This document shows positions 11,828-26,650 of a DNA stretch of 64,000 nucleotides, piece by piece. Every line of letters begins with the position of its first letter. Within the stretch, counting starts at the first letter, position 1. The position numbers were made by a program, and so were the translations under genes. The notes under the pieces were generated by a model. That model was given only the letters and a program-made list of their open reading frames with translations. It was not told the DNA's origin and searched no databases. The stretch is from Spirulina sp. GTDB lineage: Bacteria; Cyanobacteriota; Cyanobacteriia; Phormidesmidales; Phormidesmidaceae. The stretch lies in contig JBIPSI010000002.1 in the NCBI GenBank assembly GCA_044070495.1, positions 32,001-96,000 of the forward strand. The letters are read 5' to 3'.

Positions 11828-12306
11828 AGGAGATTTTGTAGGACTAGATTAGGAAACTTGTAATCCTTGAGAATCAAGAATTGGCAACAAGATCAAGAAA
11901 TGGCAACGTTCTTGGTTCTAGAGGTTCGGCAACCCCAAAGATGCAAAAATCCTGAACGTCAGCGAATCTAGAAACCGCTGCAAGGCCAACATCATGATCT
12001 GGGTGAAGACCATAGGGAGCGATGGGCCACTAGGGTGATTATACCGGATTACTCCAAGGTCGGCCTGAGCCTTGAGTGACCATGGGGCGGTGCTTCATCA
12101 GGGTCTCCTTCACCCTAGGAGGGCAGGTCGAGCCTTACCCTGGGCCGTCTCCCCAGACGCTAAACATCCTGACGGTTAGGGCTTATCCTGGAATGTATAC
12201 AATGGATTTGGCACGCCCAAGTACGGCTAGTCCGTGGGATTTGGTGTGCCCAAGTGCGGCCAGTGCGTTCCTCAACTCGGATAGATCACGGTTAGGAGAG
12301 TCTCAG

Positions 12307-13470
12307 ATGTACAAGTTGAAAGTGGTAATTGTGGGGGCCGGAATCGGCGGATTAACCACGGGGATTGCCATGAAGCAGGCGGGCTACCAGGTCGAGGTGT
12401 ACGACCGGGTGACGGAACTCCGTCCGGCGGGGGCTGGGATTTCCCTGTGGTCGAACGGGGTGAAGGTGCTGAACCGCCTGGGGCTAGGGGAAAAACTGGC
12501 GGCCATCGGCGGCGAAATGAACGCCATGGAATACCGCAGCCACACCGACGAACAACTGAGCTATGTCGATCTGCATCCCCTCTTCGAGCAGGTGGGACAA
12601 CGGCCCTATCCCGTCGCTAGAGCCGACCTACAGACCATGCTGCTAGAGGAATTTGGCCCCGAAAACGTCCATCTGGGGATGCCCTGTGTGGCGGTGGAGC
12701 AGGATGAGCAGTCGGCCACCGCTATCTTTGAAAACGGCCATCGGGCCACGGGGGATCTGGTAATTGGGGCCGATGGCGTCCATTCCGCCGTGCGAGCCCA
12801 CGTGCTGGGGCGGTCGGTGTCGCGTCGCTATGCCCGCTACGTCAACTGGAATGGCCTAGTCGCCGTCGATGAGTCTCTCTGCGCCAAGGATCGCTGGGTG
12901 ATCTACGTGGGCGAGAGCAAACGCGCCTCCATGATGCCCGTGGGCGGGGATCGTTTCTATTTCTTCTTCGGTGCACCCATGGTCGAAGGAACCCAGGTAG
13001 ACCCGGCCCATCGCCGCGATGAGCTAGCGGACATCTTCCAGGGCTGGCCCACCGCCGTGCAGCGCCTGATCGAAGCCATCGACCCCCACAGCACCAACCG
13101 CCTGGAAATTGGCGATATTGACCCCCTAGAGCGTCTGGTGCGAGGCCGCATTGCCCTGCTGGGAGACTCGGCCCACGCCACCACCCCCACCCTAGGCCAG
13201 GGCGGCTGCCAAGCCATTGAAGGGGCGGAGGTACTGACCCGCTATCTGCTCACCACCACCATCAGCGTGCCCGATGCCCTCAACCGCTACGAAAAGGCCC
13301 GTAAAGATCGCACCGCTGAACTCGTCCTCAAAGCCCGCAAGCGTAGCAGTGTGATCTACGGCCACGAACCCTCCGCCACCCAGCAGTGGTACCGCGACCT
13401 CAAGCAAGAACCCCCCGAATCCGTGATTAACGCCCTGGCGAAGGTGATTCTAACTGGGCCAATGGGCTAG
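12307..13470 (+). CDS. hpxO: FAD-dependent monooxygenase, urate hydroxylase HpxO-like
   Basis: GAGIGG, AGISLWSNGVK, GQRPYPVARADLQ, YVNWNGLV, GDSAHATTPTLGQGGCQA; Shine-Dalgarno AGGAGAG before ATG 12307. Confidence 0.8.
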   Translation: MYKLKVVIVGAGIGGLTTGIAMKQAGYQVEVYDRVTELRPAGAGISLWSNGVKVLNRLGLGEKLAAIGGEMNAMEYRSHTDEQLSYVDLHPLFEQVGQRPYPVARADLQTMLLEEFGPENVHLGMPCVAVEQDEQSATAIFENGHRATGDLVIGADGVHSAVRAHVLGRSVSRRYARYVNWNGLVAVDESLCAKDRWVIYVGESKRASMMPVGGDRFYFFFGAPMVEGTQVDPAHRRDELADIFQGWPTAVQRLIEAIDPHSTNRLEIGDIDPLERLVRGRIALLGDSAHATTPTLGQGGCQAIEGAEVLTRYLLTTTISVPDALNRYEKARKDRTAELVLKARKRSSVIYGHEPSATQQWYRDLKQEPPESVINALAKVILTGPMG

Positions 13471-13614: not shown

Positions 13615-13890
13615 TTAGCTATTCATCACAGTACTCAGGCGTTTGAGAACTTGGGCTAACAACATCAGAGCCGCATTGCCGACGCTGAGAATTAAAATTC
13701 CCACCACGCCGATCATCCAGTCATCGCGCAACACCGAAATCACTAGGATCATCACCGAAGTCTTGGTGGCAATGCTGGCAAAGGCCAACATTCGCTGCCA
13801 AATGTCTTCATCGCGAAAGGCTTCCACCATGGGGATCAATAGCGCCCCAATCATGGCGATCAGCATGAGGGTCATCGGTTGACTGGTCAT
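13615..13890 (-). CDS. mrpF: Mrp/Mnh Na+/H+ antiporter subunit F-like
   Basis: 91 aa, three TM helices, overlaps the mrpE stop; position in the operon. Confidence 0.7.
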   Translation of the reverse strand: MTSQPMTLMLIAMIGALLIPMVEAFRDEDIWQRMLAFASIATKTSVMILVISVLRDDWMIGVVGILILSVGNAALMLLAQVLKRLSTVMNS

Positions 13891-14276
13891 GGGCTGGGCC
13901 TCCGGGTAATACGGTGAACTTCGTACCAGCCCTGCTCTCGGTAGTGCTGGACGATGGTTTTTGGGGTGAAGGTAATCAGAAAAATATCGAGGAAAATTAG
14001 GCTGGGGGATCGCCGAGGTTTGGCCCGTTCCACGGTCACCACTTCATGATTGTGGGGGCGAAACATGATTTCAAAGGCTTCAAAATAGGCTTGGGGAATG
14101 GCCACCACCACTTCCCACAGCGTCCGCAGCCAGTCTTTTAAACGCCCCGGATTGGTGACGCCCCTAGGCAACAGTAGGGCTACGCTCACCCCAATTAAAA
14201 TGTTAGGCCAACTGAAATCTGCTGTCAGCAAAAACCAGATGGTCAAACGCAGCAGAATGTTTAAATATCCCGTCAT
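13887..14276 (-). CDS. mrpE: Mrp/Mnh subunit E
   Basis: IWFLLT...NILIG N-terminus and LITFTPKT motif (cf. ITLTPGT). Confidence 0.85.
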   Translation of the reverse strand: MTGYLNILLRLTIWFLLTADFSWPNILIGVSVALLLPRGVTNPGRLKDWLRTLWEVVVAIPQAYFEAFEIMFRPHNHEVVTVERAKPRRSPSLIFLDIFLITFTPKTIVQHYREQGWYEVHRITRRPSP

Positions 14277-15706
14277 ACCAATACCATCCCTAATAGTCCT
14301 AAAATTGCTAGCGCCATCATGCCAATCAGATGCTCAAATTCCTCCAGCATACGGGGTAGTTTCACGGTCAATCGACGGATGAGAACCAGGTAGATTAACC
14401 ATCCCAAAAAAATTGTGGCTAGGGGTTTAAGGACGTTATCCCAAGTATAGGCTTCGTAGTACACCACGTTAGCCGCTACTAGCCCACCCAGCAACAGAAC
14501 CATCGCTGGCCAAAAACCAGATTTCACCGCTTGGCTGGGGTCAGCTTTTTGGGGTAAGAAGATGAATTTTGCAAAGGAAATAGATGTGCCTAGGGCCGCT
14601 AGATTCATGGCGATCACCTGCCAGTCTGCCAGGTTTTTCATGGTTAGCACCTTGGCCCCAAACCCTGACAATAACGGGAATCCAGAGATGGAGAAACTGG
14701 CGATCACCAGGGCAATCCAAATGGGGCGGTGAATGGGCTGATCGTGCAGGGCTTTGAAATTTCGGTTGGGCAAATTCCCAGCGCAGAGAAACAGCGCCGC
14801 CTTCACAAAACCGTGGGTGAGAGCATAGAAGCCACCCACCTCTGGAGCCGCCAACACAAACCCCATCTGGGAAATGGTGTGGAAGGCGAGCATTCGTTTG
14901 GTGTCTTTTTCAAACATGGCATAGGCTACCCCTAAAAGGGCCGTAGCCACCCCAAACAGGCGCACCAGCGGGTCAAGTTCCCCTACTAGTAAGGCCATGC
15001 GGGCTAGGGGAAAAACCCCTGCTTTGACCACCACCCCAGACAGCAGCGCCGAAACCGGACTTTCCGATTCGGAATGGGTGAGCGGTAGCCATAGACCCGA
15101 CACAAAAATACCGCCCTTGGTGAGCAGTCCTAATAGAATCAACGCCTGGGCTTCGATGGGAGCATCTGCCAACCCAGTAAACGTAAAGGACTGGCGGGTT
15201 TGGTAGACCAAAATGGCCCCCACCAGGTAAAACAGCATGGCCGTGTTGCTAACAAATAGATAGCGCAGAGCGACCCATAGGGTTTTGTCGCTGCGGGGGT
15301 AGGCAATCAGCAAAAAGGCAGCAACGCCAATCACCTCTAGAGCCACATAGAGACTAATTAAATCAGCACAGATAAAAGCCGCATTAACACTACCGTGCAA
15401 AATGATGGTCTGAGTGTAGAAAAACGATGGCTTCCCGCTGGGCCAACAGTAGAGAATTACTGCCGCCGTTACGAGGGCATTAGTCAAAATAAAAAAGGCG
15501 CTGAGGTCATCCACTAAAAGCGTGACACCAAAGCTATCGAGTAAATGGAGTTCGAGGGGGAAGGATTGAAGAAAAATCCCCCCGGCATAGGCGAGGGAAA
15601 CCAGGGTGACGCCAAAGGCCAAAAATCGGGCAGCCTGGGGCAATAGATAAATGCTAAAGCCGATAAAAAACGGCAGCGTGACCCACAGCAAGGAGCTTAG
15701 CGCCAT
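14273..15706 (-). CDS. mrpD: Mrp/Mnh subunit D-like antiporter, copy 2
   Basis: DLISLYVALEV, WLPLTHSESESPVSALLSGVVVKAG, KRMLAFHTISQMG. Confidence 0.88.
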   Translation of the reverse strand: MALSSLLWVTLPFFIGFSIYLLPQAARFLAFGVTLVSLAYAGGIFLQSFPLELHLLDSFGVTLLVDDLSAFFILTNALVTAAVILYCWPSGKPSFFYTQTIILHGSVNAAFICADLISLYVALEVIGVAAFLLIAYPRSDKTLWVALRYLFVSNTAMLFYLVGAILVYQTRQSFTFTGLADAPIEAQALILLGLLTKGGIFVSGLWLPLTHSESESPVSALLSGVVVKAGVFPLARMALLVGELDPLVRLFGVATALLGVAYAMFEKDTKRMLAFHTISQMGFVLAAPEVGGFYALTHGFVKAALFLCAGNLPNRNFKALHDQPIHRPIWIALVIASFSISGFPLLSGFGAKVLTMKNLADWQVIAMNLAALGTSISFAKFIFLPQKADPSQAVKSGFWPAMVLLLGGLVAANVVYYEAYTWDNVLKPLATIFLGWLIYLVLIRRLTVKLPRMLEEFEHLIGMMALAILGLLGMVLV

Positions 15707-15773
15707 GGCCTACCCCTCCCGGTCAATAAACCGATGCATGGATCTAGCCATGGACAGAAATTCGCAGTAGTTT

Positions 15774-17225
15774 TTACCACGACCATGACCAAACCATCCA
15801 AAATACGAAAACCAACATCACGCTCATGCCACCAATGAGATTTTCAAAGTTTTCCATCACCCTGGGGATTGTCAACGGCGTTGTTCGTATCCATTGCCCC
15901 CAGACTAGCCAGCCCGCACCAATTACCCCCAAGGCTTTGAGAACATTAAACCAGGTGAGTGTTTGCGGCAGGTAGGCCAAATTTAGGCCCACTAAAGCCG
16001 TCAGCAGCAGCAACAGTGACACCCCTAATCCAGGATTTTTGACGAAGGCCTGGAAGTCATGGCGACGGTGGGGGAGAAAGATAAATTTAGCGTAGAGAAT
16101 TGCGGTTCCCACGGCAGCGAGATTGAGTACCCAACTTTGCCAGGGCAAAACCGCCTTGAGCGTCAACATTTTGGTGCTAAAGCCAAGGAATAAGGGAAAC
16201 CCTGAAATCGAGAGACTAGCTAGGGTAATGGGGAGCCAAAGCTGAGTGTCGATGGGATTTTGGCGCAGGGTGGGCAGGTCGCGGCTGGGCAAGTTACCCA
16301 CTCCAAGGAAGAGGGCCGCTTTACCGAGGCCATGGGCCAAGGCGTAGGGGCCAGCCACACTGGGGGCGACTAACACCCAGCCCAACTGCGAGAGGGTGCT
16401 ACAGGCCAGAACGCGCTTGGTATCGCGGTCAAAGAGGGCATAAAGTACCCCCAGCAGAGCCGCAGCCATGCCAAATAATCTGACGAGGGGAAGTAACTCC
16501 TCCATCATCAAGGCACAGCGCACCAGGGGAAATACCCCCGCCTTGACGACCACCCCAGACAACAGGGCCGATACCGGGCTTTCCGATTCCGCGTGGGTGA
16601 GGGGGAGCCACAACCCCGACACAAAAATCCCCCCTTTGGCCAGCAGCCCCACCACAATTAAAACCAGCGCTTCAAGGGGAGCATTGAGCAGCCCAGAAAA
16701 GGCAAAGGACTGGTTGGATTGGTAGACCAAAATGGCTCCTACCAAGTAGAACAACATGGCCGTATTACTGATAAATAGGTAGCGCAGAGCCACCCATAGG
16801 GTGCGGTCTTGGCGAGGGTAGGCCACCAAAAGGAAGGCGGCAATTCCAATCACCTCCAGGGCCACGTATAGGCTAATGAAATCAGCACAGATAAAGGCCG
16901 AGTTGAGACTGCCGTGGAGAATGATGGCCTGGGTGTAGAAAAATGAGGTTTTTGGGGTGCGCCAACAGTAGAGAATGACCGCCGCCGTTACGAGGGTATT
17001 CGTCAGAATAAAAAAGGCGCTGAGATTGTCAATGAGAAGAATAACCCCAAAGCTATCCAACAGATTTAAATTAAGGGAAGCCGGATGCAGAAACACCCCT
17101 AGGGTGTAGGCCAAGGAGACCAGCGTTACCCCCAAGGCTAGGACGCGGTCAGCCTTGGGCAAGAGATAAATACTAAACCCAGCCAACAGGGGCAGGGTAA
17201 TCCAGATAACGGTAAATATTGTCAT
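15774..17225 (-). CDS. mrpD: Mrp/Mnh subunit D-like antiporter, copy 1
   Basis: Paralog of 14273-15706: DFISLYVALEV, WLPLTHAESESPVSALLSG, KRVLACSTLSQLG. Confidence 0.88.
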   Translation of the reverse strand: MTIFTVIWITLPLLAGFSIYLLPKADRVLALGVTLVSLAYTLGVFLHPASLNLNLLDSFGVILLIDNLSAFFILTNTLVTAAVILYCWRTPKTSFFYTQAIILHGSLNSAFICADFISLYVALEVIGIAAFLLVAYPRQDRTLWVALRYLFISNTAMLFYLVGAILVYQSNQSFAFSGLLNAPLEALVLIVVGLLAKGGIFVSGLWLPLTHAESESPVSALLSGVVVKAGVFPLVRCALMMEELLPLVRLFGMAAALLGVLYALFDRDTKRVLACSTLSQLGWVLVAPSVAGPYALAHGLGKAALFLGVGNLPSRDLPTLRQNPIDTQLWLPITLASLSISGFPLFLGFSTKMLTLKAVLPWQSWVLNLAAVGTAILYAKFIFLPHRRHDFQAFVKNPGLGVSLLLLLTALVGLNLAYLPQTLTWFNVLKALGVIGAGWLVWGQWIRTTPLTIPRVMENFENLIGGMSVMLVFVFWMVWSWSW

Positions 17226-17578
17226 GGCTCATACCCCTTTTCGATGACGCGAGTTTCTAGGGTGGGGTTATCCCTGGCTAATTTCATCACCCCTACCAGC
17301 ATCAAGGCCTGAATCGAAAAGCCGATGACAATGGCCGTTAAAATTACCGCCTGGGGTACAGGGTCAGCATAGGAGGACTTAGGCGTTTCGGTGAGAATGG
17401 GGGTGTACACTCCGGTTCTAGCCGCCACCAGAACAAACAGCGCAACAACTCCAGTACTCATCACATCCATGGCGATAATTTTCATCACCAGATTTTCCTT
17501 GAAGATAATGCCCAAAAAGCCCATCAAAATCGTGGCATAGACGCAGGCATAAAGTATGGTATCTCCCCCTAGCTGCAT
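17222..17578 (-). CDS. mrpC: Mrp/Mnh subunit C
   Basis: NLVMKIIAMDVM and ADPVPQAVILTAIVIGFS motifs. Confidence 0.92.
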   Translation of the reverse strand: MQLGGDTILYACVYATILMGFLGIIFKENLVMKIIAMDVMSTGVVALFVLVAARTGVYTPILTETPKSSYADPVPQAVILTAIVIGFSIQALMLVGVMKLARDNPTLETRVIEKGYEP

Positions 17579-17636
17579 TTTGGTTTAGCTCCCCTCAATT
17601 ACGGCGTTGATAACGTCTAGATTACGACTTAACCTT

Positions 17637-18710
17637 TTAAGATTGTGTAACGAGCCAGGTTAACCCCGTGGCCATAACAATAATTTGTAAACTCAGCAAA
17701 AGCCAATCAGCCCACATCACCCGCCTTGTCCAAACCTCCTCATTTTTATCGACCCAGTAGGCGGTAACAATCACCTCGACAATGGAGGCAAAAATCAGGA
17801 TGTAGGCAATCACGTAGATTTCATCCATCAGCACGAGATAGCCTAAGTCGGGGAGGGCATCTGCATAGGTTTCTTGCAGAAAAACGGTGGTGAGTAGGGC
17901 TGTCACTGGCAGCGCCACCCGTGAATCAATATGCTGGGGTGCGAGCAACAGAGCGGCACAGCTTGAGGCCAATACAATCAACAGCGGCAACAACAATTTC
18001 CAAGTAAAGAAGCTCCAGGGGCGGGCAATATTGAGGGAATAGCGCAGCACCGAATGTTCTGACCGACTCGGCAAACGGGGATCGCCAAAGTTGGTGTCGT
18101 AGGTTCTCACCAGGCTATCGATGGTGGAGCCTACAATTGACCAGCCGGGGATGGTTAAAAACTGGGAATAGCCCGATGCCTCGTCATCCGCGACATAGAT
18201 AAGTTGATCTGTGGTGTAGGCCGAGTTCTCCATAAAAATGCTGAGGTTGTACTGATCGAGGGGATAGCGTTTGAGGTCAAAGGATTGGAGGAAGCGCCCT
18301 TCTACCCGTGAGATTTGGTAAAAACTGCCATCGGGCAACCGTTCTGGCTCAGGGTGGGCGGGGACAGACATCATCGACCAATCGCTAATGCTGTTGGTGA
18401 CTTCTAAATAGGTGATTGGGTCAATATCTCCTTGCCACTTAAACCACATATAGAAATCGGCATAAAAAGAATTGCTTTTGAGATCGATATCGTAAATGCT
18501 GACGGCAAAAATTCCGGTTTCTACCCGCTCGACTTGGGTGGATAGGGAGACGGGCTGCCTCGGAGAAGCTGGGGGCAAAAATGACCACTGACCTAGGCTA
18601 ATTTTGAGGCTGATGAGGAGGATTCCTACACCCAAAAGCAATAGCATAGACAGAGCCTTTGGAAAGTTCTCTGTGACTTCAGTCCACCGCCGAAATGGAA
18701 ACAGATGCAT
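17637..18710 (-). CDS. Pentameric ligand-gated ion channel subunit (GLIC/ELIC-like), copy B
   Basis: Beta-sandwich pattern VETGIF...FYADFYMWFKW, Pro-loop DLKRYPLDQYNL, IPGWSI, pre-M1 Arg and M1 WKLLLP, M2 DSRVALPVTALLTTVFLQE, M2-M3 loop LPDLGYL, then M3 and M4. Confidence 0.88.
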   Translation of the reverse strand: MHLFPFRRWTEVTENFPKALSMLLLLGVGILLISLKISLGQWSFLPPASPRQPVSLSTQVERVETGIFAVSIYDIDLKSNSFYADFYMWFKWQGDIDPITYLEVTNSISDWSMMSVPAHPEPERLPDGSFYQISRVEGRFLQSFDLKRYPLDQYNLSIFMENSAYTTDQLIYVADDEASGYSQFLTIPGWSIVGSTIDSLVRTYDTNFGDPRLPSRSEHSVLRYSLNIARPWSFFTWKLLLPLLIVLASSCAALLLAPQHIDSRVALPVTALLTTVFLQETYADALPDLGYLVLMDEIYVIAYILIFASIVEVIVTAYWVDKNEEVWTRRVMWADWLLLSLQIIVMATGLTWLVTQS

Positions 18711-18880
18711 CGCCAACGTCCAGCAAAGATGGAGTCAGTTTAGCGCTTCTATCCCCTTCACTCTATCCCTTTTCCCAAGACGGTTATCGCTCATACATAG
18801 GGCTGAGGGGAGATCCCAGGGTTCTTACTGGCAATCGGTTAAGGAACCTGTCCAGCGGTGACAGAACCCTGGGATCTAAG

Positions 18881-20290
18881 TTATGAGGCAGGGTCGGCCT
18901 TGGCGGCAACGGCATCTTCCTCGGAGCCTTTGAAGGCGATACGGAGGAAGGGTGGGGCCAGGAAGGTGGTGGCAATCACCATGATGATGATGGCCGCTTC
19001 CAGGGGCTTGGACAGCACGCCGCTGGCGGAACCGATGCCCGCAAATACCAGGCCCACCTCACCACGGGGCACCATGCCGATGCCGATGGCCAGTTTATTG
19101 AGTTGGGCTTGGCCGAAGGTGGTCCAGCCCGTGATCACCTTGCCCAGAATGGCGACGGCCAGCAGGAAGACCGCAATCACCAGGCCTTCGCGGTTGGCGG
19201 GAACGGCGGGGTTGAGCACACCCAGGTCGGCCTTGGCCCCCACGGTGACGAAGAAAATCGGCACCAGGATGTCGGCGATGGGCATCACTTGGCGATCCAG
19301 TTCCTTGCGCTTGTCGGTTTCATCCAGCACTAGGCCAGCGGCGAAGGCTCCCAGAATGGCCTCCAGGTGAATGACGTTGGCCAAGAAAGCCATCAAAAAG
19401 GCGAAGGTGAGGGCGGGGATGACCAGGTTGCCGCGCGTTTGCAGTTTGTCGGCAATGGCGACGAAGGAACTGTTGAAGAATTTACCCAGGAAGATGGCCC
19501 CCAGCAGGAACCCGGTGGCGCTGACGATCAGGTAGATGACGTTCATCACGTCTACCTCGCCCGTTTTGGCTAAGCTAGCGACCACAGCCAGGACAATGAT
19601 GCCCAACACGTCGTCAATCACCGCCGCACCAACGATGATTTGCCCTTCGGCGGATTTAAGCTGGCCAATTTCCGACAGCACCTTGGAGGTAATGCCGATA
19701 CTGGTGGCGGTCAATGCGGCCCCGGCAAAGATAGCGGGAATGGTGGGCACATGGAACAGGGTCATCAGCCCTACGGTGCCCAGGGCAAAGGGGGCGGCCA
19801 CACCGACAACGGCCACAATCGCCGCCTGGTAGCCCACTTTTTGCAGTTCGCGCAGGTCGGATTCTAGGCCGATCTCAAACAATAGGATGATGACGCCCAG
19901 TTCTGCCAGCACCGAAACCACTTCGCTCTGGCTGTGGAAGACCTCGGTGACCGCTTCGGGGGACAATCCACCCAGCCATTGCAGCAGGTGCATCAGTTGA
20001 GAATCCGCCGCCATCGCCCCGCTTTCGGGGAAAACAATCAGGTTCAGGGCGGAGGTACCCACAATCACCCCGGCCACCAATTCCCCCAGCACCGGGGGCA
20101 GGTCTACCAGGCGAGACAGTTCGCCCCCCAGTTTGCTGGCGATGTAGATCACCACCAGGCTGAGCAGAACCCCAGCTAGGACAAGCGGCCCAACTTCGGC
20201 ATCCACTTCAGGAGCCGCCGCCAGCAGTCCCCAGGATGCGGCGGCCTCTAGCCCCCTCGAAATCATCGTCACACCATTCAAATCAACCAT
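18881..20290 (-). CDS. nhaS3: CPA2-family Na+/H+ antiporter NhaS3
   Basis: LVLAGVLLSLVVIYIASKLGGEL, ATSIGIT, AAVIDDVLG, GMVPRGEVG; GAGG Shine-Dalgarno before ATG 20290. Confidence 0.9.
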   Translation of the reverse strand: MVDLNGVTMISRGLEAAASWGLLAAAPEVDAEVGPLVLAGVLLSLVVIYIASKLGGELSRLVDLPPVLGELVAGVIVGTSALNLIVFPESGAMAADSQLMHLLQWLGGLSPEAVTEVFHSQSEVVSVLAELGVIILLFEIGLESDLRELQKVGYQAAIVAVVGVAAPFALGTVGLMTLFHVPTIPAIFAGAALTATSIGITSKVLSEIGQLKSAEGQIIVGAAVIDDVLGIIVLAVVASLAKTGEVDVMNVIYLIVSATGFLLGAIFLGKFFNSSFVAIADKLQTRGNLVIPALTFAFLMAFLANVIHLEAILGAFAAGLVLDETDKRKELDRQVMPIADILVPIFFVTVGAKADLGVLNPAVPANREGLVIAVFLLAVAILGKVITGWTTFGQAQLNKLAIGIGMVPRGEVGLVFAGIGSASGVLSKPLEAAIIIMVIATTFLAPPFLRIAFKGSEEDAVAAKADPAS

Positions 20291-20377
20291 AGATACCTCT
20301 ATCGAATCTCCGTCAAATCTCTGGCAAATCTGTATCAAATCCGCGTTAGGGCGACCGTGGCCCATCGCCCCAGGATA

Positions 20378-21451
20378 TTAGCTCCATAAAATCAACCCTA
20401 TGGCCCCCAAGAAAATCGCCACAATTTGCCCAATCAGGAGCCAGCGATCCACCTTGATCACTTGGTGATACCGTTCCGGTTTCCCTTCCTTAATCCAGTC
20501 GGCAGTGAGAATCGCCTCGGCGATGGAAAGAAAGATCAAAACGTAGGCGATCACGTAGATCTTATCCATCAAGACCAGGTAGCCAATATCGGGCAGACTT
20601 GAGGAATAGGACTCCTGCAAAAATACCGTGGTCAGCAGGGCGGTGACGGGGAGGGCAATGCGAGAATCGCTGTATTCAGGATTGAGCAGCAGCGATCCCC
20701 AACTGGAGGCCACCACGATCACTAGGGGCAACAGCAACTTCCAAAGAAAGAAGCTGGGGGGTCGAGCAATTTGAAGGGAATACTTGAGAATCGAATGCTG
20801 GGCTCCATCGCCTAGGCGAGTATCTCCAAAGTTAGTGCTGTATTCGCGCAGCAGCGTCTCCAGTTTAAACCCCATAATGCGCCAGCCAGGAATCGCCAAG
20901 GTCTCGGAGTAGCCCGACTGATCGGGTTCTGCCACGTAGACTAAATCATCGATGGTGTAGGCAGAGTTTTCCAAGATAAGGCTTAAATAATGGCGATCCA
21001 AAGGGTATCGAGCCAGGGAAAGGGGCTGCACAAAACGGCCCTCAACCCGCCAAATTTGGTATTGACGATTATCCTCTAAAATTTCAGGCTCCTCATAGGT
21101 CGGCGTGATCACCATGCCCCAATCATCCACCCCATTGGAAAACTCCAACTGAGCGAGGGGATCAATGTCCCCCTGCCACTTAAACCAGGCATAAAAATCG
21201 GCGTAGTAGGTATTGCTGGATGGATCTAAATCGTAGACATTCATCGCAAACAATCCGGTTTCAACAATTGCAGATTGGCTCGGTACCGTGGTCAGGGGTT
21301 GGAAGACATGGTAGAGATCCACCCCGTCCTCCGATTGTCGTAATCCCAGTTGGAGTAGAACCGTAACTAGAGCAACGCTTAGGGCGGCGAAGACAAAGGT
21401 ACGGGCTTTGTGCCGTCTACTCCAAGGCAAAAGTTGGTGAAGAAAATGCAT
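20378..21451 (-). CDS. Pentameric ligand-gated ion channel subunit (GLIC/ELIC-like), copy A
   Basis: VETGLF...YYADFYAWFKW, Pro-loop SLARYPLDRHYL, IPGWRI, ARPPSFFLWKLLLP, M2 DSRIALPVTALLTTVFLQE, LPDIGYLVLMD, M4. Confidence 0.88.
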   Translation of the reverse strand: MHFLHQLLPWSRRHKARTFVFAALSVALVTVLLQLGLRQSEDGVDLYHVFQPLTTVPSQSAIVETGLFAMNVYDLDPSSNTYYADFYAWFKWQGDIDPLAQLEFSNGVDDWGMVITPTYEEPEILEDNRQYQIWRVEGRFVQPLSLARYPLDRHYLSLILENSAYTIDDLVYVAEPDQSGYSETLAIPGWRIMGFKLETLLREYSTNFGDTRLGDGAQHSILKYSLQIARPPSFFLWKLLLPLVIVVASSWGSLLLNPEYSDSRIALPVTALLTTVFLQESYSSSLPDIGYLVLMDKIYVIAYVLIFLSIAEAILTADWIKEGKPERYHQVIKVDRWLLIGQIVAIFLGAIGLILWS

Positions 21452-21488
21452 GGTCTAGGGGGCGTAACAGGGCCATTCGGCAGGGGTA

Positions 21489-21589
21489 GAGGTAGGGTGG
21501 CAGTGCCCACCCTAAGGTTCCTAGGAAATATACCCCCGCCATCGGCCCATCCTACTGCCCCGGAGGTAGGGTGGCAGTGCCCACCCTAC
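21489..21589. repeat. Cluster of GTAG-type REP palindromes between bicA and pLGIC-A
   Basis: GAGGTAGGGTGGCAGTGCCCACCCTA at 21489-21514 and 21563-21588, plus a degenerate copy ending CCCATCCTAC at about 21538-21555. Confidence 0.75.
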
Positions 21590-21593
21590 GGAG

Positions 21594-23297
21594 CTAGAGC
21601 ATGCGGGGCACTTCCGATCCGGCGGTATCACCGGAGTAGTCGATGCCGTCGATGGCCGCGAGGACTTTGAGGGAGGCCTTCAGGGCTTCGGCGCGGGTTT
21701 GGACGAGGTGTTTGGCGGGGACAAACCGCAGCACACCTAGTTTTTCTAGGCGTTTCAGGGTTTTGCCCTTCGCGCCAACCAGGAACACCTGCCGTCCGGC
21801 GTCCGCCGCATCTTGGATGGCGTTTTCTAGGGCCAGGGCCGCTGTCACGCCCAGGTGGGGCACGTCTTGCAAGTCCACAATCAGCACATCGTGGTCTTCC
21901 ATGGCGGTATGTTCTTGGGAAATGGCCCGTGCCACGCCGAAGATCATGGGGCCATCCAGGTGGAAGAGCAGAATCCGGCCCTTAGCCCGATCCATGAGGG
22001 CGCTTTCTTCGTCGTTGAGGGGAAAGTCGCCGTCGAAGTCGGTGATGGTTTTTACGCCCTCTGATTGCAGGCTGCTGAGGCGGTCGATGGTGAGCATGTT
22101 GGCGATGAACACGCCCACCCCCACGGCCACAATCAAGTCCACAAACACGGTCAGGAACATCACCCCGTACATAATGGCGGTGCCCTTCCAGGACACATGG
22201 TGCGCCCGCTTCAGGAAGCTCCAGTCCAAAATATCGAAGCCGACCTTGACGGCAATCCCCGCTAGCACCGCCAGGGGAATCACCTTGGTGAGCGGAGCCG
22301 CCCAGAGAACGACCACCAGCAGAATCGCCGCCCGAATCAGACCCGACAGCGCCGTGCGGCCCCCGGCCTGGATGTTGACCACCGTCCCCATGGTGGCCCC
22401 AGCACCGGGCATCCCGCCAAACAGACCGGACATCAGGTTGCCGATCCCTTGGCCAATCAGTTCTTTGTTGGGGTCGCTTTGGGTGCGGGTAATGCTGTCG
22501 GCAATCATCGCCGTCAGCAGGGCATCAATACAGCCCAACATCCCCAGCACCAAGCCATCCACCAGCATCACCCGCAGTTGGTCGGCGCTGAACATGGGCA
22601 GTTGCAGCGTCGGCAATCCGGTGGGAATTTCCCCAATCAGGCGCAGATCGGCATTGGCAAACACCGTCAGGGCCAGAATCGTCCCGGCCACCAGCACCAA
22701 CAACTGAGGCGGTACCCAGCGCTTTAACTGCTTCGGCATCAGGAACAGCACCGCCAGGGAGAACACCCCCAGGGCCACCTCCGCCGGATCGAGGGTGCTG
22801 ATTAGCGTCGGCAAACTGGTGAGGGTGCCGACCACGCCGCCCTTGGGAGTGGCATGGCCCAAAAATGGCCCCAGTTGCAGGATAATTAGAATCACCCCAA
22901 TGCCCGACATAAACCCAGAAATCACCGGGTAGGGCATGAGGGTAACGTAGCGCCCCAGCTTGAGAAATCCAAAGATAATCTGGAAAAAACCCGCCAGCAT
23001 GGCGACCGTAAAGGCCATGGCCATACCATTTTCGGGATTGGCCGCCACCAGTTGAGCGATCACAGCGGTAAACACCACCGTCATCGGCCCCGTAGGTTCA
23101 GAAATTAGCGTGGGTGTGCCCCCAAACAACGCCGCAAAAAAGCCCACGATCACAGCCCCATAGAGACCGGATGCAGGCCCAGCCCCAGAGGCCACCCCAA
23201 AGGCCAGGGCCATCGGTAGCGCAATCACCGCTGCGGTGACGCCCCCAAACAAGTCACCCCGCCAGTGGCGGAAGCTAATTCGATTTGTGATGCCCAT
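21594..23297 (-). CDS. bicA: SulP/SLC26 Na+-dependent bicarbonate transporter BicA
   Basis: MGITNRISF...RGDLFGGVTAAVIALPMALAFGVASGAG, ISEPTGPMT, GCIDALLT, GAGATMGTV, C-terminal STAS domain (GPMIFG). Confidence 0.92.
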   Translation of the reverse strand: MGITNRISFRHWRGDLFGGVTAAVIALPMALAFGVASGAGPASGLYGAVIVGFFAALFGGTPTLISEPTGPMTVVFTAVIAQLVAANPENGMAMAFTVAMLAGFFQIIFGFLKLGRYVTLMPYPVISGFMSGIGVILIILQLGPFLGHATPKGGVVGTLTSLPTLISTLDPAEVALGVFSLAVLFLMPKQLKRWVPPQLLVLVAGTILALTVFANADLRLIGEIPTGLPTLQLPMFSADQLRVMLVDGLVLGMLGCIDALLTAMIADSITRTQSDPNKELIGQGIGNLMSGLFGGMPGAGATMGTVVNIQAGGRTALSGLIRAAILLVVVLWAAPLTKVIPLAVLAGIAVKVGFDILDWSFLKRAHHVSWKGTAIMYGVMFLTVFVDLIVAVGVGVFIANMLTIDRLSSLQSEGVKTITDFDGDFPLNDEESALMDRAKGRILLFHLDGPMIFGVARAISQEHTAMEDHDVLIVDLQDVPHLGVTAALALENAIQDAADAGRQVFLVGAKGKTLKRLEKLGVLRFVPAKHLVQTRAEALKASLKVLAAIDGIDYSGDTAGSEVPRML

Positions 23298-23349
23298 CGC
23301 CAGCACCTAAATCCTTTTATTGAAGTTAATAAATGTTGAAAACTTTTGC

Positions 23350-23365
23350 ATCGACAAAAGTCTAT
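23350..23365 (-). promoter_or_regulatory. NdhR/CcmR-like operator (ATAG-N8-CTAT, one mismatch)
   Basis: Minus strand ATAG-ACTTTTGT-CGAT in the AT-rich region about 55 bp upstream of the bicA start. Confidence 0.6.
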
Positions 23366-23452
23366 ACATAGAACCATAACATCTCCGTTCGGCAAATCTC
23401 ACGGGATCTACGATTGATTTTCCTGATAGGGGTGAAAAGCTGGTGGAATAAC

Positions 23453-23848
23453 CTAATCGCGCTGTTCGAGGTGCTGGCGGATAGCCTTAAGCTCCTCCAG
23501 AATTTGCCGCAACAGGTCGGTGGTGACGGTTTCTGTGGCGGGCTGCACCTGAATCACGGGCTGAAGCCCCAGTACTTCCTCAGCAAAGCGGCGCACCTCC
23601 TGGGGCCGAAACACCAAGGGTTCGTCCTTATTCTGGCGTAGTTCGGGGTTGAGTTTTCTGGGATCGTAGGGCGGGTTGAGGAGGTCGGGGTCGGTGTTGG
23701 CGTAGCGGTAGACCGAGGCCCGCGAGCGGTTGAGATAGCGCTGCACGTCGTCAATGGTCAACCCCGACTCTGGGGTCGGGAAGGTAGCCCCTAAGCTGGG
23801 CTTGGTAACGTTGGACAATTCGCTGGGGGAAAAATCGGGGAAACTCAT
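23453..23848 (-). CDS. Small HTH protein (excisionase/HTH_17-like; cyanobacterial 'resolvase'-annotated family)
   Basis: LTIDDVQRYLNRSRASVYRY HTH and C-terminal amphipathic helix; no catalytic recombinase domain visible. Confidence 0.7.
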   Translation of the reverse strand: MSFPDFSPSELSNVTKPSLGATFPTPESGLTIDDVQRYLNRSRASVYRYANTDPDLLNPPYDPRKLNPELRQNKDEPLVFRPQEVRRFAEEVLGLQPVIQVQPATETVTTDLLRQILEELKAIRQHLEQRD

Positions 23849-24043
23849 GACGGCAGCGGCGCAAACCTAGGGTGCTGTTGGGGTGACGCGATATTCGTTG
23901 GTTACTTTAGCAGGTTCAGCCGAGTACTCCTTATATTCTAGAGCGGGCAATTGTTCTGGGGCTATTGCCCCGTTAGAACCTCGAACGGGCTACTATTTGA
24001 GGGAATTTGGTCAGGGAGATTTGGGCGAATCCGCCGATTGGTC

Positions 24044-26650
24044 ATGGTACACAAGCGCCTAGAACCGTTCCTCAGTCGAAAGCGCGTGGCCGTGGTAGAA
24101 GCCTGCGTGATTGGGCTGGTGTCGGGGCTGGCGGCGGTGTTGCTGAAGCAGGGAGTAGAATGGCTGACCCTGTGGCGTACGAATACGACCCTGCCTCTAT
24201 GGGTGGCGCTGCCGCTGATTGGCCTGGGGGGCGGCTATCTATCGGGCTGGCTGGTAGAGCGACTGGCCCCGGAGGCATCGGGCAGCGGCATTCCCCAGGT
24301 GAAGGCGGCGCTGGGGTTTGCCAAGATGCCCCTAAATTTGCGGGTGGCGCTGGTGAAATTGGTCAGTACCCTTTTGGCCCTGGGGTCTGGGCTGTCTTTG
24401 GGGCGGCAGGGGCCAACGGTGCAGATTGGGGCGGCCCTGGCGGCGCAGCTTAGTCGTTGGGTGCCCACTTCGCCGGAGTATCGGCGGCAGCTCATTTCGG
24501 CAGGAGCGGCGGCGGGGCTGGCGGCGGGGTTCAATGCGCCCATTGCCGGGGTGTTGTTTGTGGTGGAGGAACTGCTTCAGGATTTTTCCGACCTCACCCT
24601 GGGCAGCGCCATTTTGGCCTCGTTTATTGGAGCAGTGGTGTCGCGGCTGCTGGGGGGGCAGGGGCTAAACCTGGTGATGGAGGCCAAGCCCGTTAGCCTG
24701 TCGGTCTATGACCTGCCCTTTTTGGTGGTTTTGGGATTGCTGGCGGGACTGCTGGGGTCACTGTTTCGGCGGGGCATTTTTGGCAGCTTGGCCTTTTTTA
24801 GGCAATTTAAAACCCTCGGCCTGCCCGGTCGCATTGGCCTAGCAGGGCTGGTGACGGGGCTGGTAGGGGTGTTTGTGCCCGTGGCCGCTGTGGATAATAC
24901 GGGTCTTCAGGAATTTCTGGTGACCGGATCGGCGGGCTGGAAACTGATTGCCGTGGCCTTTGTCGTCAAGTTTTTGCTGACCCTGCTGGCCTACGGCTCT
25001 GGGGCGGCGGGGGGTATTTTTGCGCCCTCCCTGGTGCTGGGGGCGGCACTGGGATGCCTAGTGAGTTTTTTGGCCCAGGGAGCCTACACGGGATTTGGGG
25101 CATGGCCGATGCCGGAAGCCCTGGGCAGCACCACCACCTACGCCCTCACCGGGATGGGAGCCTTTTTTAGCGCGGTGACGGGGGTGCCGATTACGGCCAT
25201 CGTCATCGTGTTTGAGATGACCGCCAACTTTAATCTGGTGCTGCCGCTGATGATTGGCTCCGGTATCGCCTACCTGATTGCCGACCGGGCCAACCGAGGC
25301 TCCATCTACAATCGCCTGCTGGAACTGAAGGGCATCCACCTGGAACCTGTGGCCCAGGCCAATAATCCCTGGGCACACCTCACCGCCGCCGACCTGATGC
25401 AGCGCCGGGTAGAAACCCTCTCCAGCCAGATCACCCTACCGGAAGTCGTGCAGGCTTTTTCGAGATCCCACCATCGCGGCTTTCCGGTATTGGAAGAAGG
25501 GCGACTGGTGGGCATCGTTACCCAAAGCGACCTGGGTGAGGCCAGCAGTCAGGGGCTAGAACCCTACCTCACCCTGAAGGATTTGATGACGCCCCACCCC
25601 GTCACCGTGGCCCCCGATGCGCCTCTGCCCAGGGTGCTACACCTGCTGAACCGCCTCAAGCTCAGCCGTTTGCCCGTCACCGAGGGCAACAAACTGGTGG
25701 GCATCATCACCCGTGCCGACATCATCCGGGCCGAGTCGGATCAAGTCAGCGGCGACCTGCCAGAACTTGGCCCCCAGGCCGAACCCTCCTACGTCGTCTT
25801 CCAGCAACGCGCTCCGGCCACGGGGCAGGGTCGTTTATTGGTGCCCCTAGCCGACCCCCAAACCGCCCCCGACTTAATCAAAATTTCCGCCGCCATTGCC
25901 CACGGTCTGCACTACGAATTGGAGTGCGTCCATGTGGTGCGGGTGCCGCGCAGTGTCGCCCCCGCCGAAGCCAGGGTAGACCTGCAAACGGCGGAACCCC
26001 TGCGCCAACTGGCCCTCTCCTACGCCGAACACAGTGGCCTGTCGGTGCATTTCCAAGTCCGCGCCGCCCACGAAATTGGCCGCACCCTGCTGGAAGTCAT
26101 CCGCGACCGCCACATCGACCTCGTCCTCATGGGCTGGCACCACCCCACCCTCACCCCCGGTCGCGTCATCAACAGCGTGGTGGATACCCTGATTCGCCAA
26201 GCCCCCTGCCAGGTGCTCGTCGTCCGCCCAGGCCGCAACCTCAGCTTTAACCACTGGCTGCTACCCACGGCGGGCGGCCCCAATGCCCAAAGCGCCCACC
26301 GCCTGCTGCCCGGACTGATCACCCTCGGCAAAACCCCCGACGTTCACCTCTGCACCATCTGCCACCCCGAACAGGGCAAATGCCTTACGCCGCAGTACCT
26401 CTCTACCCTCGCCGATGACCTCGAAGCCGCCCTGAATCGGCCCGTCCGTACCCATGTCGTCACCCACACCTCGGTATCCGAGGCCATCCTCGACCTCTCC
26501 CAACAGTGCCAAAGCGACGCCATTCTGCTGGGGGCTTCCCGTGAAAACCTGCTCAGCCAAGTGCTGAAGGGCAACGTGCCCCTAGAAATTGCCCAACAAA
26601 CCGATATCACGATCATCCTGCTGCGCCAAGTGGAGGATGAGAGCGAGTAG
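24044..26650 (+). CDS. CLC-family chloride channel/transporter with a CBS pair and tandem USP domains
   Basis: GSGIP, GRQGP, GFNAPIAG, GIFAP, SIY; CBS motifs (HRGFPV, LSRLPV); USP-like LLVP...DLVLMG and DAILLGA. Confidence 0.92.
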   Translation: MVHKRLEPFLSRKRVAVVEACVIGLVSGLAAVLLKQGVEWLTLWRTNTTLPLWVALPLIGLGGGYLSGWLVERLAPEASGSGIPQVKAALGFAKMPLNLRVALVKLVSTLLALGSGLSLGRQGPTVQIGAALAAQLSRWVPTSPEYRRQLISAGAAAGLAAGFNAPIAGVLFVVEELLQDFSDLTLGSAILASFIGAVVSRLLGGQGLNLVMEAKPVSLSVYDLPFLVVLGLLAGLLGSLFRRGIFGSLAFFRQFKTLGLPGRIGLAGLVTGLVGVFVPVAAVDNTGLQEFLVTGSAGWKLIAVAFVVKFLLTLLAYGSGAAGGIFAPSLVLGAALGCLVSFLAQGAYTGFGAWPMPEALGSTTTYALTGMGAFFSAVTGVPITAIVIVFEMTANFNLVLPLMIGSGIAYLIADRANRGSIYNRLLELKGIHLEPVAQANNPWAHLTAADLMQRRVETLSSQITLPEVVQAFSRSHHRGFPVLEEGRLVGIVTQSDLGEASSQGLEPYLTLKDLMTPHPVTVAPDAPLPRVLHLLNRLKLSRLPVTEGNKLVGIITRADIIRAESDQVSGDLPELGPQAEPSYVVFQQRAPATGQGRLLVPLADPQTAPDLIKISAAIAHGLHYELECVHVVRVPRSVAPAEARVDLQTAEPLRQLALSYAEHSGLSVHFQVRAAHEIGRTLLEVIRDRHIDLVLMGWHHPTLTPGRVINSVVDTLIRQAPCQVLVVRPGRNLSFNHWLLPTAGGPNAQSAHRLLPGLITLGKTPDVHLCTICHPEQGKCLTPQYLSTLADDLEAALNRPVRTHVVTHTSVSEAILDLSQQCQSDAILLGASRENLLSQVLKGNVPLEIAQQTDITIILLRQVEDESE

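Follow-up and report, generated by a model that had tools for sequence, protein, structure and literature searches.

In bacteria, the ligand-gated ion channels that assemble as pentamers (pLGICs) have two major structural models, GLIC, the proton-gated channel of Gloeobacter violaceus, and ELIC, the amine-gated channel of Erwinia/Dickeya. The physiological roles of bacterial pLGICs are, to our knowledge, essentially unknown, and we know of no operon partner of GLIC. The heteromeric Cys-loop receptors of animals (nAChR, GABA-A, GlyR alpha/beta) are built from sets of subunits that are conserved across species, and some of these subunits are non-functional alone. A bacterial pLGIC in a genomic context is described in the relevant excerpts of Tasneem et al. 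2004 (PMC549065), where a predicted cation-selective channel of Microbulbifer degradans shares an operon with a Na+/H+ transporter, an arrangement interpreted as a possible connection with the Na+ cycle; these excerpts also argue that genomes with a single copy imply homopentamers. The locus described here contains two pLGIC genes, copy A and copy B, and lies in a 64,000-nucleotide stretch of Spirulina sp. contig JBIPSI010000002.1 (the window; its own genome is labelled G000). Between 13.6 and 23.8 kb of the window the minus strand carries a run of same-strand genes in the order small helix-turn-helix (HTH)-like gene, bicA, B, CPA2 Na+/H+ antiporter, A, mnhC, two copies of mnhD and two small membrane open reading frames (ORFs) (Table 1). 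It is fairly probable that A and B are separately recruited accessory members of one conserved, mainly cyanobacterial subfamily of GLIC-like pentameric channels. Copy A is the resident channel of a sub-lineage of the bicA/CPA2 antiporter/mnh operon in the genus, and copy B comes from a neighbouring branch of the family and was inserted, in this genome only, into the spacer between bicA and the antiporter gene.

Both genes encode complete, genuine pLGIC subunits, each starting with a signal/anchor helix at the N-terminus ahead of the beta-sandwich ECD (extracellular domain) and M1–M4. A phmmer search of the PDB returned 248 sequences at E ≤ 10, with a best value of 1.1e-17 for a GLIC–GABA-A chimera and 6.1e-12 for GLIC; the best sequence scores belong to the transmembrane domains (TMDs) of GABA-A receptors and GlyR. 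Curated models remain under their cut-offs (Pfam Neur_chan_memb, 19–21 bits vs 28.1; NCBIfam LIC, 62–75 bits vs 280), so A and B belong to a divergent pLGIC subfamily. An AlphaFold2 model of copy B, built on a 75-row alignment, has a predicted local distance difference test score of 87.7 and consists of strands in residues 61–229 followed by four helices (232–255, 261–283, 294–320 and 325–356). In a Foldseek search with this model the top 28 matches are all GLIC or GLIC chimeras (template-modelling (TM) score 0.75–0.80), the best being GLIC with a TM score of 0.79–0.80 over ~311 residues and E 1.6e-23. Only B was modelled, and copy A aligns to it without gaps from residue 60. The RYPLD Pro-loop of both copies aligns to RYPFD of GLIC; P150 and the pre-M1 arginine R230 are invariant in the 75-row alignment, and R230 is present in all 119 family rows. 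Sequence similarity, fold, the Pro-loop with the pre-M1 arginine, and an M2 helix with a 9' gate and a charge filter together place both proteins in the pLGIC superfamily.

Beyond the fold, the two proteins share with GLIC a cyanobacterial origin, the RYP[LF]D Pro-loop and the lack of a Cys-loop disulfide. They also share an acidic ring at -2', which in GLIC is part of the charge-selectivity filter according to the pore passages of PMC3590989. However, identity between GLIC and the A/B subfamily is only 18–22%, and the pore lining given for GLIC in those passages (S6', I9', A13', I16') differs from the R0', P4', T6', L9', F13' and E/Q16' found here. ELIC is matched at 5.9e-12 by the whole protein and at 2.8e-8 by M1–M3 alone, has a similar M1 (PSYYLW vs PSFFLW) and carries an acidic residue beside R0'. 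Its acidic residue, however, aligns at -1' across a one-residue gap, and its ECD is not detectably closer. A database search recovered 280 relatives at E ≤ 1e-5. Most are unnamed, and the named ones are mostly cyanobacterial (Geminocystis, Nodosilinea, Pantanalinema, Planktothrix, Tolypothrix), with one Ignavibacteriaceae bacterium. The A/B subfamily is conserved, GLIC-like and mainly cyanobacterial.

The genome of this Spirulina has exactly two copies of the subfamily. In a class sample of 401 genomes, 9 others carry a close orthologue (E ≤ 1e-100) with one match each; the matches in G172 are two pieces of one split gene, and the several matches of ~30% identity seen in a few genomes are to more distant pLGIC families. 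An order sample of 173 genomes yields 13 others with a match at E ≤ 1e-60, again one each: six are A-type (77–87% identical to A) and seven are 47–59% identical to A. Each of the six A-type genes has its place between the antiporter gene on one side and mnhC on the other, and no channel gene occurs between bicA and the antiporter gene in any of these six operons. A metagenome contig (L072) has the same arrangement and carries A only (75% identity to A), so that A occurs without B in seven syntenic operons, six in the genus plus the metagenomic one. A survey of the operon in the genus, with the antiporter protein as query, found 27 other loci with an antiporter gene at least 86% identical. In 20 of these mnhC comes immediately after the antiporter gene and a pLGIC is absent; A alone is present in six, one is unresolved, and none has B. 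A and B therefore occur together in 1 of 28 operon loci, that of the genome under study. Given these counts, the pLGIC is an accessory of the bicA/antiporter/mnh operon, with A confined to one sub-lineage and B to the genome under study. One of the A-type genes, in G469 (L070, G469:C150, 5357–6093), matches copy A in part only, at 80%. Its sequence is scattered over three frames and has nothing corresponding to residues 1–82; it is either a pseudogene or an assembly error (the genome is 89% complete). Multi-copy pLGIC genomes do exist in the class outside this subfamily, since four small-genome cyanobacteria of another family (G001, G298, G306 and G366) carry 2–4 distant paralogues each, ~30% identical to B, with frames of 376–474 aa at separate loci.

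A quick IQ-TREE phylogeny of 83 rows was built from 18 genome ORFs, A, B and 63 of 120 database hits (hits 2–30 if 320 aa or longer, each A-type hit, and every third of the remaining hits). The A clade comprises 14 rows with 100% support on a long stem (0.58), and all members whose context is known are located between the antiporter gene and mnhC. Copy A is nested at the tip of this clade, next to G460 and G463. Copy B pairs with the database protein P0002 (77% identity, 100% support), and both lineages fall within a 27-row clade with 96% support. Because copy A sits at the tip of an A-only clade, descent from an operon with both genes would require B to have been lost independently at least four times, vs one gain. 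A recent tandem duplication of A was also considered and is ruled out: A and B share 57% identity across 304 aligned residues, far below the 70–87% within the A clade. To judge from these identities, copy B is not a recent duplicate of copy A.

The boundaries of the segment that carries B can be placed by BLASTN synteny with five A-only operons. The alignment is ~90% identical through bicA, breaks at 21566–21600, and resumes at 20191–20227, inside the antiporter gene. The 1.34-kb segment thus replaces the spacer between bicA and the antiporter gene (roughly 130–340 bp in A-only operons) together with the first ~25–30 antiporter codons. The corresponding residues of the antiporter (MVDLNGVTMISRG..., 20227–20290) are unrelated to the MTEILSSLS... 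seen in the six operons used for comparison; besides bringing in B, the insertion gave the antiporter a new start. The G+C content at third codon positions (GC3) of B is 0.60, vs 0.75 for both flanking genes, and is also low in A and the mnh genes (0.58–0.67). The palindrome at the left edge of the segment has two matches in the window vs 0.03 expected in shuffled sequence, and a similar hairpin follows bicA in G460 and G487. This site may have been the recombination site of the insertion.

Neither copy is degenerate. Among 57 positions conserved in at least 95% of the family, B departs at one and A at two, with no complementary loss of conserved residues between them. Copy A matches all 176 positions that are invariant in the A clade and has no private changes. 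The ratio of nonsynonymous to synonymous substitution rates (dN/dS) of A against four A-only orthologues is 0.10–0.12 overall, 0.05–0.10 in the ECD and 0.03–0.07 in M1–M3; copy A is under purifying selection. An earlier reading of the locus from its sequence alone (the sequence-only reading) had proposed a per-domain dN/dS comparison. This can be carried out for A against its orthologues, as above, but the A–B pair is unsuited to it, since synonymous sites are saturated at 57% identity and the ratio is not meaningful. The A clade is marked by 15 signature positions, of which eight (104, 107–109, 120, 134, 141 and 145) are in the ECD and Pro-loop, two (281 and 289) are at the top of M2 and in the M2–M3 loop, and five are elsewhere. 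These substitutions suggest that the gating of A has diverged from that of B-type channels.

The sequence-only reading started from the pore. The M2 strings it gave for the two copies, with one V/I change, are present in the ORF translations, as is the LPD(L/I)GYLVLMD that follows (LPDLGYLVLMD in A, LPDIGYLVLMD in B). Its pore numbering (D-2', P4', T6', L9', F13', E16') is also right, because HMMER alignments to the GlyR and GABA-A TMDs and to ELIC place the arginine at 0'. The span it treated, 17637..21451, also contains the 469-aa CPA2 antiporter gene between the channel genes, which it did not mention. Identity between A and B is 10% in the N-terminus, 57% in the ECD, 70% in M1, 90.5% (19/21) in M2, 69% in the M2–M3 loop plus M3, 12.5% in the M3–M4 loop and 35% in M4. 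The pattern of a conserved pore and diverged surroundings thus holds for M2, the best conserved region, and for the N-termini, but the ECD is only moderately diverged. Chance is not in question for this similarity, since the genes are homologues.

Conservation of M2 is a property of the whole family. Across 119 homologues from unrelated genomes, D or E at -2', R0', L9' and Q15' are found in every one, F13' in 117, T6' in 115 and P4' in 105. The varying position is 16', with Q in 98 and E in 17; E occurs in A, B and neighbouring branches. In 2,961 family pairs of similar core identity the mean identity is 54.6% in the ECD, 70.5% in the TMD and 78.9% in M2, vs 57.0%, 72.4% and 90.5% for A and B. 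The ratio of TMD to ECD identity is 1.27 for A and B and 1.29±0.10 for the family, with 57% of pairs at or above the A–B value. Gene conversion as the source of the M2 identity is ruled out, since only 24% of the identical residues in the M2 window use the same codon; M2 is conserved at the protein level. These comparisons show that M2 is nearly identical in A and B because the pore is under purifying selection throughout the family; the similarity is not a signature of co-assembly. According to the excerpted pore sections of PMC3590989, the acidic ring at the cytoplasmic end of the pore marks the charge-selectivity filter, and the hydrophobic rings at 9' and 13' form the barrier. The cation selectivity proposed by the sequence-only reading appears reasonable in that light, because an acidic residue occupies -2', the position of GLIC Glu-2', in all 119 members.

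From the same pore pattern a heteropentamer of A and B had been proposed. This proposal is unsupported, because a near-identical M2 is common to the whole family and the other genomes examined have one copy or none; A is found without B in seven operons, B is specific to this genome, and no subfunctionalisation is seen. Like the subunits of animal heteromeric receptors, A and B are paralogues in which M2 is conserved and the ECD diverges more, but unlike them they form a pair in one genome only, each type being alone elsewhere. Subunit genes that co-occur across related genomes and divide the labour, the marks of a heteromeric pLGIC, were not found. A complex prediction for A (50–357) with B (48–357), made with alignments, scored 0.08 vs a mark of 0.32; it was run without controls and speaks neither for nor against binding. 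These tests remove the evidence for mixing of A and B but do not show that the two cannot mix. The alternative offered in the same reading, two channels gated by different stimuli, fits better; the A clade has a long stem and 15 signature substitutions.

A possible setting for such channels is suggested by the neighbouring genes. [quoted passage not shown] In our proposal, A and B would each form its own homopentameric, cation-selective channel with the ECD towards the periplasm (or the thylakoid lumen), gated perhaps by pH or a small solute. The channel would provide a regulated shunt for Na+/K+ within the circuit of Na+ that is driven by BicA (Na+/HCO3- symport) and by the NhaS3-like and Mrp antiporters (Na+ exported in exchange for H+). 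The two channels probably differ in gating. Gene order ties one pLGIC subfamily to a defined module of Na+-coupled bicarbonate uptake and Na+/H+ antiport, through the A insertion kept in seven other operons and the second, separate insertion of B here, and the locus offers a testable setting for the natural stimulus and role of the channel. The case of M. degradans is similar in that a bacterial pLGIC lies beside a Na+/H+ transporter gene, but as given in the excerpts of PMC549065 it concerns a gammaproteobacterium and one neighbour gene, whereas here the channel lies, twice, within a bicA–CPA2–Mrp carbon-uptake operon. Full-text literature searches listed no paper tying a pLGIC to the cyanobacterial CCM, bicA, nhaS3 or mrp. 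Repeated capture of the subfamily by an operon for carbon uptake and Na+ cycling is of more interest than the heteromer idea.

Several points weigh against separate recruitment and the role proposed with it. The assembly of G000 consists of 74 contigs, and the junctions of B are known from that assembly alone. The best tree places B and P0002 as sister to the A clade, weakly (Shimodaira–Hasegawa-like approximate likelihood ratio test, 78), so an old duplication within the operon followed by repeated loss of B is a formal possibility. Only 10% of family pairs of comparable divergence equal or exceed A and B in M2 identity (90.5%). Both genes are on the same strand of one apparent operon and are probably made together, and paralogues that are 57% identical, with TMDs at 72%, could physically mix. 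The role in the Na+ circuit is argued from gene order only, and most members outside the A clade lack conserved neighbours: no conserved partner was found for stand-alone members among 29 neighbours at 12 cyanobacterial loci and 26 at 14 metagenome or other loci, where the adjacent genes include ClpB, valyl-tRNA synthetase, ABC1 kinase, polyhydroxyalkanoate synthase, peptidases and GNAT. The exception is G139 (L041, G139:C214, 3738–11533), in which 100 bp separate a LysR gene from a family member downstream of it. The LysR gene follows genes for NdhF-like (ndhF3), NdhD-like (ndhD3) and ChpXY (CupA-like, E 6e-146) proteins, an inducible CO2-uptake module. The neighbourhood in G139 is a single extra hint of a link to the CCM.

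The possible joint production of A and B raises the question of a facultative heteromer, in which the two proteins, made from the same transcript in this strain, would mix in variable composition and give properties that neither homomer has. The spacers between the operon genes are short (58–170 nt) and terminator-like sites are not in excess in the operon (11 vs 13.8±4.2 in shuffles). Both genes are intact, the proteins are 72% identical in M1–M3 and 19/21 in M2, and they share E16', which only 17 of 119 members have. However, none of this evidence is specific to the pair, conservation of the pore being family-wide; A does without B in the seven syntenic operons and B-like genes stand alone elsewhere, A is unchanged after the arrival of B, and the two genes are not adjacent. 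We regard such mixing as unlikely.

Alternatively, B could be a redundant passenger, recently transferred and without a distinct role, maybe poorly expressed, and either being lost or replacing A. Its restriction to one genome, on a compositionally distinct segment whose arrival rewrote the antiporter N-terminus, is consistent with this, as is the dispensability of A itself in the genus, where it is absent from 20 operons and carries a frameshift in one. B nevertheless keeps 56 of the 57 family-conserved positions and a full-length frame. That the operon acquired a pLGIC of this subfamily on two occasions also speaks for selection, and a third family member lies beside ndhF3–ndhD3–cupA and the LysR regulator in G139. 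A passenger without a distinct role seems improbable.

A more far-reaching proposal, which we hold to be speculative and quite improbable, is that the subfamily is a gated cation valve of the CCM that senses, through its domain facing the periplasm, pH or a solute related to inorganic carbon or Na+ and tunes the Na+ circuit that powers BicA, that the operon captured the channel twice, and that A and B co-assemble in this strain. If A and B did co-assemble, they would be the first natural heteromeric prokaryotic pLGIC; full-text searches of the literature listed no report of one. An evolved, obligate heteropentamer of fixed stoichiometry like the animal nAChR or GABA-A receptors, which has only co-location and the common pore helix in its favour, deserves almost no credence in view of co-occurrence in 1 of 28 operon loci and in no other sampled genome, the absence of complementary loss of conserved residues, and the nesting of copy A, by which an ancestral pair would entail at least four losses vs one gain.

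Table 1. Features of the pLGIC-containing operon and of the segment carrying copy B (window coordinates)
Feature	Position	Strand	Evidence or remarks
Small HTH-like protein, 131 aa, 5' of bicA	23453..23848	-	weak Pfam HTH_17, E 2.9e-4, under gathering score
bicA, SulP/STAS Na+-dependent bicarbonate transporter	21594..23306	-	NCBIfam equivalog NF050096, 932.3 bits vs cut-off 880
20-nt palindrome AGGGTGGGCACTGCCACCCT, two exact copies	21494-21513, 21568-21587	-	between bicA stop and B start, left segment edge
1.34-kb segment seen in this genome only	20227..21566	-	carries pLGIC copy B
pLGIC copy B, 357 aa	20378..21451	-	predicted signal/anchor helix, beta-sandwich ECD, M1-M4; M2 = DSRIALPVTALLTTVFLQE
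CPA2 Na+/H+ antiporter, 469 aa	18881..20290	-	Pfam Na_H_Exchanger 1.2e-67; ORF open to 20365
pLGIC copy A, 357 aa from ATG at 18710	17637..18710	-	M2 = DSRVALPVTALLTTVFLQE
Mrp/Mnh antiporter subunit C (mnhC)	17222..17578	-	NCBIfam NF005620, 180.6 bits vs cut-off 91; Pfam Oxidored_q2
Mrp/Mnh subunit D (mnhD), first copy	15774..17225	-	NCBIfam NF005564, 704.6 bits vs cut-off 439
Mrp/Mnh subunit D (mnhD), second copy	14273..15706	-	NCBIfam NF005564, 807.3 bits vs cut-off 439
Two small hydrophobic ORFs, 129 + 91 aa, 4-nt overlap	13615..14276	-	syntenic conservation, 76-96% and 85-91% identity

The start of copy A is probably the ATG given in Table 1. A TTG in the same frame precedes it by two codons, at 18716 (ORF 17637–18716), and the database form of the protein, P0060, has 357 aa. 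The product of bicA is identified as BicA by sequence, passing the equivalog cut-off and showing similarity to the solved BicA structures (6ki1, E 1.5e-175; the STAS structure 6ki2, 2e-41; Pfam Sulfate_transp and STAS). The antiporter reaches 182 bits against the NCBIfam CPA2 subfamily model, under the cut-off of 238, and shares 93–96% identity with its positional counterpart in six genomes. The name NhaS3 is borrowed from the CCM literature, and we apply it to this protein as a label of convenience rather than as a tested orthology. The 131-aa HTH-like protein has no NCBIfam match. Its gene is kept at the same place, with 77–85% identity, in G460, G455, G477, G469 and L072, and the product is possibly a regulator. 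The Mrp/Mnh set at the locus consists of one C and two D subunits above curated cut-offs. Neither Pfam nor NCBIfam gives a match for the 129-aa and 91-aa ORFs, even at E 1; by gene order they occupy the places expected of mrpE and mrpF. Beyond the last of them this strand continues with nothing like mnhG, mnhA or mnhB (these genes were not searched for elsewhere in the genome).

The number of mnhD copies varies in related operons: there are two in G000, G460, G455 and G463, and one in G487, G469 and the metagenome operon L072. Within the genus, mnhD identity ranges from 60 to 95%, whereas bicA and the antiporter are steady at 94–98%. GC3 forms a mosaic across 13615–23848, with 0.75–0.76 in the HTH gene, bicA and the antiporter gene and 0.58–0.67 in both pLGIC genes and all mnh-like genes. 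The next gene beyond the small ORFs (12076–13470, plus strand) looks like a flavin adenine dinucleotide monooxygenase by its GxGxxG motif, as judged by eye. At the other end, a gene whose product joins a CLC chloride channel to CBS and two Usp domains (23951–26650, plus strand) is divergent from the operon and keeps its position, with 94–97% identity, in G460, G455, G477 and G469.

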